64,000 bases of DNA from Nitrospirota bacterium (GTDB taxonomy: Bacteria; Nitrospirota; UBA9217), in contig CAWCKW010000013.1 in assembly GCA_963796285.1 (NCBI GenBank), positions 256,001 to 320,000 of the forward strand, in the 5' to 3' direction. Below, in pieces: positions 31,536-46,911 of the stretch. Position 1 is the first letter of the stretch; every line of letters starts with the position of its first letter. The notes under the pieces were generated by a model. That model did no database searches and had not been told where the DNA came from. It saw nothing but the letters and a program-made list of their open reading frames with translations. The position numbers and the translations under genes are program-made.

Positions 31536-33449
31536 CTATTTGTAATTTCTCGTTGTCAGCTTTACTGTCTCGAACACCAGCGGCTCTTTATGCAGCTCCG
31601 GCTCTTTGCCAGCACCCCGGTACTCCCAGGCTGAGACATGACTGAAGTTCCGGTCATCGCGCAGTGCCTCGCCGTCATCCGTCTGGTGCTCCACGCGGAA
31701 GTGGGCGCCGCAGGATTCATTTCTTTGCAGGGCATCTCTGGCCAGGAGCTCGGCGAACTCGAGGAAATCGGCAACTCGCCCCGCCTTTTCAAGCTCCTGG
31801 TTCAGTTCCCTGCCGCTGCCGGTTATTTTCACGTTCTCCCAGAACTCGGTACGCAGAAGCGGGATCTTCTTGAGAACCTCTTTGAGACTCACTTCGCTCC
31901 TCGTCATGCCTGCGTGTTCCCACATGATCCTGCCGAGCTCGCGATGGAATTCGGTGACGGTCTTCTTTCCCTGGATAGAGAGAAGCGTTTTCGTAGATGC
32001 CTCAACCTCATCGCGCGACCGGGAGAATTCAGGATGATCGGATTTGATCGTATTGGGGGCTGTCCGGGCGAGATAGTTCGCGATGGTGTACGGAAGGATG
32101 AAGTAACCGTCCGCAAGCCCCTGCATGAGCCCGCTTGCGCCGAGGCGGTTCGCGCCGTGGTCCGAATAGTTCGCCTCGCCGAGCACGAAGAGGCCGGGAA
32201 GATTGCTCTCGAGGTTGTAGTCAACCCAGAGCCCGCCCATGGCGTAGTGCGGCGCGGGATACATGCGCATGGGTTGTTCATAGGCGTTCTCCGCGGTAAT
32301 GCGCTCGTACATCTCGAAGAGGTTGCCGTAGCGCTCGCGGACCGTGTCCTCGCCAAGGCGCTTGATGGCATCGGCGAAATCGAGATACACGCCGCGGCCG
32401 CCCGGACCGACTCCCCGTCCCTCGTCGCAGATCTCCTTGGCAGCGCGTGAAGAAATGTCGCGCGGCGCAAGGTTGCCATAGGAGGGATATTTTCGTTCGA
32501 GATAGTAGTCCCGTTCCTGTTCAGGGACATCGTTCGGTTGGCGCGTGTCGCCCTTTTTCTTCGGCACCCAGACCCTGCCGTCATTCCTGAGCGATTCCGA
32601 CATGAGCGTCAGCTTGGCCTGGTGGTCGCCGGTGACCGGGATGCAGGTCGGATGGATCTGGGTAAAGCACGGGTTGGCGAAGAAGGCGCCCTTTTTGTAG
32701 GCACGGTACGCGGCGGTCACGTTCGAGCCGATGGCGTTCGTTGAGAGGAAAAAGACGTTCGTGTATCCACCCGTTGCAAGGCAGACCGCGTCGGCAGCAA
32801 GGGACACGACCCTGCCGGTCACGAGGTCGCGCACCGTAATGCCCCTCGTTGCTCCGTCAACGACCACCAGGTCGAGCATCTCCGTGCGGGGGTGCAGGGT
32901 GACGGCGCCTGCCTTCACCTGGCGCATGAGCGCGCCATAGGCGCCGAGCAAAAGCTGCTGCCCGGTCTGGCCCCGCGCGTAGAACGTGCGCGATACCTGA
33001 GCCCCGCCGAAGGAGCGGTTCGCGAGATAACCCGCATAATCCCGCGCAAAGGGCACGCCCTGGGCAACGGCCTGGTCGATGATGTTGACGGAGAGCTGCG
33101 CGAGCCGGTAGACATTCGCCTCGCGGGAACGGAAGTCGCCGCCCTTGATCGTATCGATAAAGAGCCGCTCGATGCTGTCGCCGTCGTTCGGGTAGTTCTT
33201 GGCGGCATTAATGCCGCCCTGGGCGGAGATGCTGTGGCCGCGGCGCGGAGAGTCCTGGAAGCAGAAGACGTCTACGTGATAGCCCAGTTCGCCGAGCGAA
33301 GCGGCAGCCGACGCGCCGGCCAGACCGGTTCCGACCACGATGATGCGATACTTCCGCTTGTTCGCCGGGCTCACAAGCTTCAACTCAGCCAGACGCCTGT
33401 CCCACTTCTCATGCAGCGGACCGGATGGTATGTTGCCGTCGAGGATCAT
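31536..33449 (-). CDS. sdhA: Succinate dehydrogenase/fumarate reductase flavoprotein
   Basis: [43 protein letters not shown]. Confidence 0.95.
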
Positions 33450-33475
33450 GATGATATAACCTCAATAAAATCGGT

Positions 33476-33842
33476 TCTCGCAGAGGCGCAGAGCGCGCAG
33501 AGAAAATCGTAACAACAGCAGAAAAATTACCGCTTAATAAGTTGCATCTGGTACGACCGCACCAAATGCAAAACCTTTTCGCGCAAAGCCGTAGCCTGCT
33601 GTTGCCAAAACGCGGCCATAAACAAAGTCGCGAAGAACGTCAACAAAAGGGGAAAGCGATAAGTTCATAAGAAAACAATCAAGCCTGAGTCAGCCTGAAT
33701 ACGAGACCTGCTTTCCTTTGCGACTTTGCGGCTCTGCGCGAGACGCCTTGGTTCTTGACGTGAATAGTTGCAATAAGTTTTGAATTCAACATTAATAAGT
33801 AAGTTGCTGCTTTACCTCTGCGAGCCCTGCGCCTCTGCGAGA
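33476..33842. repeat. Three-level nested element: outer CGCAGAG arrays, inner CGCAAAG arrays (33579-33741), 31-bp insert
   Basis: TCTCGCAGAGGCGCAGAGCGCGCAGAG ... CTCTGCGAGCCCTGCGCCTCTGCGAGA. Confidence 0.85.
33592..33622 (+). mobile_element. 31-bp mini-insertion, copy 1
   Basis: TAGCCTGCTGTTGCCAAAACGCGGCCATAAA; exact reverse complement at 46846-46876. Confidence 0.7.
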
Positions 33843-33859
33843 AAACTGGTTTCTGTTTT

Positions 33860-46538: not shown

Positions 46539-46591
46539 TCATGAAGCAATGATTAACCGCGGAGACGCTGAGACGCAGAGAAAGACAAAAA

Positions 46592-46813
46592 ATGCCGCGT
46601 AATCACAAATGGACACGGTTAGATAATAAGAAAGAAGAGGCCGTAGGCGAAGCAACGCCAGTGTGGAAATGTCAATGTCCATGTCATAAGGTTGGACAGA
46701 TCGTGATTCATCCAGTGCCATGCTGTGAACCCTGTCCATATTGTAAAAAGAATGTTGCAAGAGGGGCATTGATTGAACACCTGAAGGATTGCAGTAAATA
46801 TCAAAAGACATGA
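46592..46813 (+). CDS. Small Cys/His-rich putative Zn-binding protein (cargo)
   Basis: CQCPCH, CCEPCPYC...H...C; AT-richer than its neighbours. Confidence 0.55.
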   Translation: MPRNHKWTRLDNKKEEAVGEATPVWKCQCPCHKVGQIVIHPVPCCEPCPYCKKNVARGALIEHLKDCSKYQKT

Positions 46814-46845
46814 AATAGTTTCTTAAGTTTTTCTCCGTGTCTCCG

Positions 46846-46876
46846 TTTATGGCCGCGTTTTGGCAACAGCAGGCTA
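46846..46876 (-). mobile_element. 31-bp mini-insertion, copy 2
   Basis: TTTATGGCCGCGTTTTGGCAACAGCAGGCTA is the reverse complement of 33592-33622. Confidence 0.7.
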
Positions 46877-46911
46877 CGTCTCTGCGGTGAAAATTTATTT
46901 GGAGTTCTGGA

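Follow-up and report, generated by a model that had tools for sequence, protein, structure and literature searches.

Mobile DNA only a few tens of bases long, of which the repetitive extragenic palindromes (REPs) and the small dispersed repeats (SDRs) of cyanobacteria are examples, is poorly understood mechanistically. SDR4-6 of Nostocaceae cyanobacteria, the subject of Elhai et al. 2008, are reportedly 21-27 nt long; SDRs nest in one another, and we know of no enzyme for SDR-like elements. SDR5 is described as inserting in HIP1, itself another repeat, and no SDR-like repeat is recorded outside Nostocaceae among the cyanobacteria examined in that source (PMC5861425). REPs are defined as extragenic palindromes of 20-40 bp that carry a GTAG/CGTC tag and often adjoin RAYT genes (PMC3733652). 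REPINs are doublets of inverted REPs whose movement is attributed to RAYTs, which are usually present in single copy and flanked by repeats (PMC3116915). Against this background we describe a 31-bp sequence that occurs twice in a stretch of 64,000 nucleotides (hereafter the window) from a Nitrospirota bacterium and that we take, with a probability of roughly 0.78, to be a member of a family of very small, non-autonomous, site-specific mobile DNA elements residing in an uncultured Nitrospirota lineage.

The window covers C13:256001-320000 of a 3.58-Mb, 13-contig metagenome-assembled genome (MAG; 96% complete, 5% contamination), designated G000; related genomes are designated G003, G004, G005 and so on, G004 and G005 representing the two closest species. 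An earlier note on this DNA had interpreted the 31-mer as a non-autonomous micro-element that parasitises repeat arrays and is mobilised in trans, and this overall interpretation is now supported by copy number, by target specificity and by the existence of empty sites. The family is real and active or recently active, and its 31-bp member is among the smallest site-specific mobile elements seen. Findings that would have spoken against it did not appear: there are dozens of copies and not two, the sites are specific and not random, and the host repeat also exists empty, which means that the 31-mer is not a fixed part of it.

Two identical copies in inverted 8-mer arrays

The exact 31-mer (TAGCC...CATAAA) is located at 33592-33622 on the plus strand and, as its reverse complement, at 46846-46876 on the minus strand, just as the earlier note had it. 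With up to 3 mismatches allowed, the window contains no further match, and 0/100 shuffles gave any. In both cases an inverted 8-mer array has one of its arms interrupted between CG and C, the junction reading ...cgcaaagccg^caaagtcgcgaag at site 1 (flanks cgcaaagccg^caaagtcgc) and, on the minus strand, ...ccgcagagacg^cggagacacggag at site 2. Taking the insert out brings back the agreement with the opposite arm, and the sequence so reconstructed equals that of real empty sites, both paralogous and orthologous. Target-site duplication is absent, and the junction is unambiguous. The two sites and their surroundings comprise the following features.

33592..33622, plus strand: 31-bp element, copy 1; exact match lying between CCG and CAAAG, with 5/7 paralogous host units empty at exactly that junction.
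46846..46876, minus strand: 31-bp element, copy 2; exact match, identical to copy 1, with no insert in the orthologous arrays of G004 and G005.
33572..33642, plus strand: CGCAAAG-type 8-mer array arm split by copy 1 (flanks 33572-33591 and 33623-33642); with the insert removed it reads CGCAAAGC CGCAAAGT CGCGAAGA.
33712..33746, plus strand: pyrimidine-rich partner arm of the copy 1 array, reverse-complementary to the left arm once the latter is restored (cctttgcgactttgcggctctgcgcgag).
33547..33770, plus strand: dispersed host repeat of ~220 bp (GGTACGACCGCACCAAATGC...GCGCGAGAC), which holds the inner array pair and copy 1; 7 copies aligned.
33474..33508, plus strand: left arm of an outer CGCAGAG-type array; the outer arms enclose the inner host repeat, and the orthologous slot of G005 has the outer pair without the inner unit.
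33812..33846, plus strand: right (CTCTGCG) arm of the outer array, which pairs with the left outer arm at 33474..33508.
46829..46892, minus strand: CGCAGAG/CGGAGAC-type array arm split by copy 2 (flanks 46829-45 and 46877-92).
46555..46586, plus strand: partner arm of the copy 2 array (aaccgcggagacgctgagacgcagagaaag).

The host arrays constitute a separate repeat family and may be more unusual than the 31-bp insert. They form inverted pairs of 3-4 units with a period of ~8 bp (CGCAGAG, CGCAAAG, CACGGAG, CACGAAG and others), the purine-rich arm coming first in 49/50 pairs; arms agree inside a pair and vary from pair to pair, and one and the same intergenic slot holds different arrays in different species. 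The ~220-bp repeat, which is reminiscent of miniature inverted-repeat transposable elements (MITEs), is also found at C13:431049, C13:477195, C1:13307 and C6:67328, as well as on C12 of G004 and C78 of G003. Its two ends are formed by the CGCAAAG array pair, and in the window it lies between the arms of an outer array pair. The array pair hosting copy 2 encloses a 73-codon, Cys-rich open reading frame (ORF; 46592-46813, plus strand) with CxC, CC and CxxC motifs, which is conserved in G005 and degenerate in G004. No Rfam family matched the element or the arrays in the window; a DicF match at 33187-33219 (plus strand), scoring 32 bits against a gathering score of 48 and lying within a coding region, is probably due to chance.

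Copy number and target specificity

The search for further copies that the earlier note had called for revealed 5 exact copies of the 31-mer genome-wide and 13 at up to 3 mismatches, with 0 in a backwards-genome control. The family can be summarised by the consensus TA(G/C)CCTGC-N11-CGCGG(C/G)CA(T/C)A(R)(R). Searching for its two ends as a pair (TA[GC]CCTGC and CGCGG[GC]CA, with 10-12 bases between) returned 44 perfect-end copies in the genome, whereas its reversed version gave 0. When 1-2 mismatches were allowed, the background was high, with 49 matches compared with 37 in the control. The curated set used below (n=51) consists of the 44 perfect-end copies and 7 of the 49 mismatch matches, namely those with an obvious family interior and flanks, the other 42 having been discarded. 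Spacing between the 5' and 3' termini is 31 bp for 41 end pairs and 62 bp for 11, with a few single occurrences besides. All five exact copies fall within 177 kb of C13 (P about 1e-5), a clustering that fits recent local spread, while MAG contigs may come from slightly different strains.

The target is nearly uniform. On the 5' side of the junction the 51 curated copies have C in 49/51 and G in 46/51, and on the 3' side C in 49/51 followed by purines (R) in 48/51, 51/51 and 51/51, in keeping with the CG^C(A/G)(A/G)AG-type target without duplication that had been proposed from the two window copies. All flanks are read in the element's own orientation, which is to say that the orientation of insertion relative to the target is uniform. 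As to context, 19 of the copies reside in CGCAGAG-type arrays, 16 in CGCAAAG-type arrays and 3 in other short-period arrays; the remainder are within the loop of a family member in reverse orientation (9) or in a related longer family (4). Identical element sequences are found in different array classes, the exact 31-mer itself in 2 CGCAAAG and 3 CGCAGAG arrays. Insertion is thus precise and oriented, between CG and C(R)(R)(R), with no target base duplicated or deleted, and the target is either a unit of the inverted 8-mer arrays or the same motif in the loop of another copy.

Is the heptamer CGCRRAG, which occurs 3451 times in the genome, the whole of the target? In a strict test, array context was seen at 28/51 occupied sites and at 272/820 unoccupied intergenic CGCRRAG sites (odds ratio 2.45, P=0.002), and the heptamer alone was rejected; the test is crude, and it suggests that array context adds something beyond the heptamer. 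Also rejected was a 'guide' idea, according to which the loop CTCTTGCG, being the complement of CGCAAGAG, would pair with the target: loop type is uncorrelated with target class, and position 15 of the element varies whereas position -2 of the target is constant.

Filled and empty sites

The ~220-bp host repeat was aligned in 7 copies, 5 from this genome and one each from G004 and G003. Only 2/7 contain the 31-mer; the other 5/7 read AAAGCCG|CAAAGTCGC, uninterrupted and free of any duplication. Outside the insert the two filled units are identical at 144/170 positions (84.7%) and inside it at 31/31 (P=0.006 for co-divergence with the host), which places the insertion after the host repeat, a temporal order that the earlier note had deduced and that is echoed by the identical inserts in different array classes. 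At site 2, the orthologous arrays are empty in G004, where the flanks are ~95% identical, and in G005, and since these are the two closest species, one insertion in this lineage is the parsimonious reading. The orthologous slot of site 1 is occupied by quite different arrays in different species or has no inner unit. Public contigs over both sites include single X1 and X8 contigs that skip exactly 33592-33622, with only 21-29 bases on the shorter side; they are short, do not bridge the repeats and may derive from empty paralogues or other strains.

Mapping of all 23 G004 copies, with their flanks, onto G000 adds a wider view: 9 are shared, 2 complex, 3 cleanly empty, 6 without an alignable array and 3 unresolved. 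The complex sites are L173, where the two genomes have different composites at the same site, and L176, where two G004 copies face one degenerate copy in G000. The cleanly empty ones, at which G000 retains the array, are L172 (twice) and L180, and L190 represents the reciprocal case of an extra copy in G000 that is missing from G004. At L175 the 31-mer of the window is present in both genomes, plain in G004 and, in G000, with another family member of 31 bp inside the loop, so that a nested insertion can be observed directly at orthologous positions. Turnover between the sister species is recent, and target-site duplication, the hallmark of DDE-type MITEs, is absent at every clean filled/empty pair.

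Two neighbouring observations belong here. At L172 in G004 (C1:20893 and 20983), and at C12:901986/902111 in G000, both arms carry family members at mirror positions that belong to different subfamilies, and arm complementarity is thereby partly restored. In addition, a 1.3-kb IS4/IS5-like insertion sequence (IS; CATAAGTGTCCCAA...TTGGGACACTTATG) lies at C3:351250-352640 of G000, ~10 bp from an element-bearing array; it is absent from L189 of G004 and has partial copies on C12. The 1.3 kb of extra DNA that G000 shows, relative to G004, beside the copy at C3:351247 was accordingly set aside, because it is this ordinary IS4/IS5-like IS with inverted repeats of its own.

Could such turnover proceed with no dedicated enzyme, through gene conversion or replication template switching between arrays that offer short 8-mer homology on both sides? 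We regard this as unlikely. The targets are indeed mutually similar repeats, and 3/5 exact copies have about 12-16 bp of common flank on each side (accgcagagacg^cggagacacggagaaa); however, the exact 31-mer occupies CGCAAAG (2) as well as CGCAGAG (3) arrays, other members occupy loops, and all that these contexts have in common is CG^C and a purine run. The clustering of the exact copies within 177 kb, the composites of L173, which differ between G004 and G000 as if one had been replaced, and the filled arms of L172, which equal the empty arms plus the element plus one 8-bp unit, would all suit such copying, as does the fact that no enzyme was found. Microhomology-mediated copying nevertheless predicts ragged ends, and none are seen: CG and C stand where expected in 45-49 of the 51 junctions. 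That the termini are conserved while the interior varies or is enlarged suggests that ends are recognised, and the stem-preserving covariation described below would be needless for conversion.

Distribution of the family

The family pattern was detected in 10/41 genomes searched, this one counted. Besides G000, the positive genomes are those of 4/8 other species of the genus and representatives of 5 other genera of the family; in the phylum's other families, 0/16 genomes were positive. Scanning a single genome for each species produced at least 109 loci; among the matches listed, 25/112 had target-type flanks, and the target-flanked loci up to L120, again among the matches listed and with 7 later loci left out, all belong to uncultured Nitrospirota or Nitrospirae MAGs. 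The other matches listed are scattered single ones, as chance would be expected to produce for a 16-base pattern. Because the family is common to independent MAGs of several studies, it is not an assembly artefact, and the window's own DNA is present in peat, wetland, soil and sediment metagenomes, likewise from several studies. In one relative (G023:C13:10871-11271) three identical family members lie exactly 187 bp apart, embedded in a tandem repeat.

Among viral contigs (IMG/VR, loci L197-L236) there were 40 matches to the degenerate pattern, and only L210 (GC 57%) has a true family copy, situated in an array. About 33 of the viral matches were set aside because they all represent the same conserved locus, unrelated to the family, in one virus lineage (GC about 46%; TAGCCTGCATTTGCGAGTGCGCGGCCA, tail ATCG, no array flanks), and 6 further ones as scattered look-alikes without family interior or flanks.

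Derivatives and predicted structure

Composite forms of 61-62 bp are present in 8 copies in different arrays; their outer element is the window 31-mer in 5 and has TACCC ends in 3, and the 62-bp composites with intact outer ends also spread. Reverse-nested composites recur, their inner copy occupying TTCG^CAAGAG within the loop of a copy that faces the other way, and there is a 43-bp relative with the termini of the 31-mer and a longer interior. Taken together, the composites, the reverse-nested forms and the 43-bp relative show that the mobile unit is defined by conserved ends and a free interior.

Conserved termini with a variable interior would also fit a footprint, each copy being the fused ends left after excision, or internal deletion, of a larger IS that targets CG^C. 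MITEs arise in this way, and in an incomplete genome the parent element could be unassembled. Still, sequences that combine both termini with target-type flanks do not exceed about 105 bp, pairs of termini 1-4 kb apart being single and consistent with chance, and the interiors are identical between copies (5 exact copies, 8 near-identical composites), from which it follows that the small form itself was copied; of all the explanations considered, this one is the least probable. One apparent parent, delimited by mirrored flanks at C12:1108635/1114541, was discarded, since these flanks are part of a 362-bp inverted duplication with no transposase inside. The duplication itself (C12:1108300-1108660 and 1114540-1114900 of G000; 91% identical) contains a nested element cluster in each copy and brackets a 5.9-kb segment of ordinary genes.

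The earlier note had stated that the insert can fold, and here the outcome is mixed: a fold is predicted (-5.1 kcal/mol), and it is not exceptional (z = -1.4), 18/200 shuffles folding at least as well. More can be learned from variation among copies. For this purpose, 37 distinct 31-mers were assembled from this genome and all fetched loci, using a search pattern that left positions 3 and 25 free. In these related sequences, positions 3 and 25 are complementary in 35/37 distinct variants (CG 19, GC 16) and positions 10 and 15 in 34/37, and all four combinations of the two pairs are present (15, 10, 5 and 4 counts). The covariation supports a predicted bulged hairpin (3-5:23-25, 7-8:21-22, plus an apical part) that is probably under constraint; with the energy unexceptional, the case for the hairpin rests on covariation rather than on energy.

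A conserved, covarying structure would also fit if the 31-mer did not move itself but had a function, for instance in binding a protein or as a structural signal in RNA or DNA, and was kept by selection and multiplied only with its host repeats. The copies are, moreover, intergenic in 43/51 cases by a crude gene call (the other 8 lying in doubtful ORFs), and the shared orthologous copies L181 and L174 are identical between species although their flanks are ~95% identical. What makes this explanation very improbable is that one host repeat is known both filled and empty, that orthologous sites are empty in sister species, and that copies are nested in each other in both orientations. Nor is there a preferred orientation with respect to genes or a matching Rfam family, and the family is patchy even inside the genus, with 4/8 other species positive.

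How might the element move?

The element encodes nothing and would therefore have to be moved in trans. In the mechanism that we favour, the two ends of this non-autonomous 31-mer pair into a short bulged hairpin around a variable, enlargeable centre, and the folded hairpin would be the substrate of a single-strand cut-and-join reaction of the HUH/Y1 type, as in IS200/IS605 and REP/RAYT. The predicted cut sites are G^T, 2 nt to the 5' side of the stem, and A^C, 6 nt to its 3' side, and joining would take place at CG^C in a single-stranded target. The junctions share no core, as site-specific recombination would leave, and show no duplication, as DDE enzymes would, which leaves an HUH-type reaction, some other enzyme or enzyme-free copying. 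We give the HUH-type mechanism a probability well short of an even chance, and assign what remains to an enzyme still to be identified or to enzyme-free copying. More speculative, and in our view doubtful, is the thought that the element and the inverted 8-mer arrays together form an undescribed transposition system, in which a 31-nt DNA with a single hairpin would be excised and pasted at CG^CRRAG by an enzyme class so far unlinked to transposition, the fast-evolving arrays would serve as dedicated landing pads, and a loop mimicking the target would let copies stack and carry cargo.

A number of observations weigh against an element moved in trans, and particularly against the HUH variant of it. 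The HUH case is made by elimination, and its two usual signatures, a strand bias and an associated Y1 gene, are missing: copies are distributed 25 vs 24 with respect to the replication strand (GC skew), without the lagging-strand bias typical of IS200/IS605, and 19 vs 15 with respect to the orientation of neighbouring genes. The folding energy is ordinary, the covariation counts do not stand for independent events, and some copies have long flanks in common and may have multiplied with the host repeat. No recurrent kb-size element with both termini was found in the genome, and no mobilising enzyme emerged from the IS200, 300-aa Y1/RAYT-like, IS110 and TnpB candidates, among which the TnpB profile (PF07282) had no match in the genome. 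The MAG being incomplete, with 96% completeness and 5% contamination, the enzyme may simply be unassembled.

The candidates themselves fare as follows. The earlier note was right that the window holds no candidate enzyme, all Y1 and IS110 matches lying outside C13:256001-320000, and its suggestion that HUH/Y1 or IS110 genes might carry the element's hairpin at their ends was not borne out, neither being linked to the element (GIY-YIG genes were not searched for). An intact IS200 at C13:80648-81022 was excluded, as its terminal hairpins (CCCAGCAGCTCTGCTGCTGGG type) are unlike the element and no element motif adjoins it. IS200 scores above cut-off in 3/10 element-bearing genomes as well as in 7 element-free ones, and G004, with its 23 copies, has none. 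At the end of C12 there is a 300-aa Y1/RAYT-like gene (C12:2054741-2055630, L020), likewise excluded: it is frameshifted and reaches 50 bits compared with the cut-off of 80 for NCBIfam REP_Tyr_transpos, its upstream flank being lost at the contig end. In relatives, 9 loci of this gene, intact or nearly so, had no element motif at their ends; the gene has matches in the element-free genomes G014 (12) and G008 (4) and was not found in G009, which has 6 element copies.

Of the 4 IS110 genes in the genome, 3 were compared, two of them near-identical with definable ends. The ends of these two (AGACYTGATAATC...GACCCTRAAG) are unrelated to the element, as are their insertion sites, which are not arrays, and nothing element-like was seen near the third copy. 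IS110 genes occur in 6/10 element-bearing and 10/31 element-free genomes, a weak phyletic link, and the element junctions CG|TA and AA|C share no core, unlike what is expected of IS110/IS1111-type elements. The Y2/IS91 profile (PF04986) had no match in the genome, and the control genomes gave none either. As an aside, the 300-aa protein with its N-terminal Y1 (IS200-like) domain has many matches in relatives (L161-L171) at 70-90% identity, including 21 in G013 and 12 in G014, and the similarity among its gene copies is limited to the coding region, with no recognisable terminal repeats.

What, then, can this family contribute? It amounts to a clean natural experiment, with an unambiguous junction free of duplication, an oriented 7-base target, sites that are empty in paralogues and in sister species, derivatives that are nested or carry cargo, and stem covariation. 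These features define oligonucleotide substrates, and any candidate enzyme must cut G^TA and AAA^C and join at CG^C. Elements of this size exist beyond cyanobacteria and proteobacteria, and the 8-mer hairpin arrays of Nitrospirota are dynamic insertion targets.

Comparison with known systems

A non-exhaustive literature search brought up no description of the element or the arrays; in the accessible portion of the one paper retrieved for Nitrospirota together with REP, Nitrospirota genomes are merely tabulated (PMC12306157). The comparison with SDRs can be made by description: like the element, SDRs are dispersed repeats of tens of nucleotides, are held to be mobile and insert at specific short sequences, including another repeat. 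In contrast to SDRs, the element has a Nitrospirota host, a probably unrelated sequence, a length of 31 bp and, as its target, a unit of an 8-mer array instead of HIP1.

Like REPs, the Nitrospirota element is small (31 bp, within the 20-40 bp of REPs), extragenic and repeated in many copies; it inserts without target duplication, and its copies insert into or beside other copies. The putative unpaired 5' tag of its predicted hairpin reads GTAG only in the TAGCC subfamily and only if the G of the target is counted; the last G of 'GTAG' (position 3) is paired and covaries, and the other subfamily reads GTAC. Instead of a long GC palindrome there is a short bulged stem with 3+2 conserved pairs and a variable inner stem. 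Whereas REPINs are inverted doublets placed side by side, the element occurs mostly as singlets (41 end pairs at 31 bp), and its 62-bp forms are nested in loops. And in contrast to the REP/RAYT arrangement, no copies flank a RAYT-like gene, and the Y1-like genes of relatives are multi-copy (21 matches in G013, 12 in G014).

With IS200/IS605 the element shares the lack of terminal inverted repeats beyond the hairpin, the lack of target duplication, a conserved structure and a strictly oriented insertion 3' of a short specific sequence. It departs from them in having one hairpin rather than two subterminal ones, a right flank that is constrained as well and no strand bias, and the ends of the resident IS200 are unrelated to it. 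The closest known kinds are thus the cyanobacterial SDRs and the REPs: the 31-bp element works like them and is probably a member of neither.

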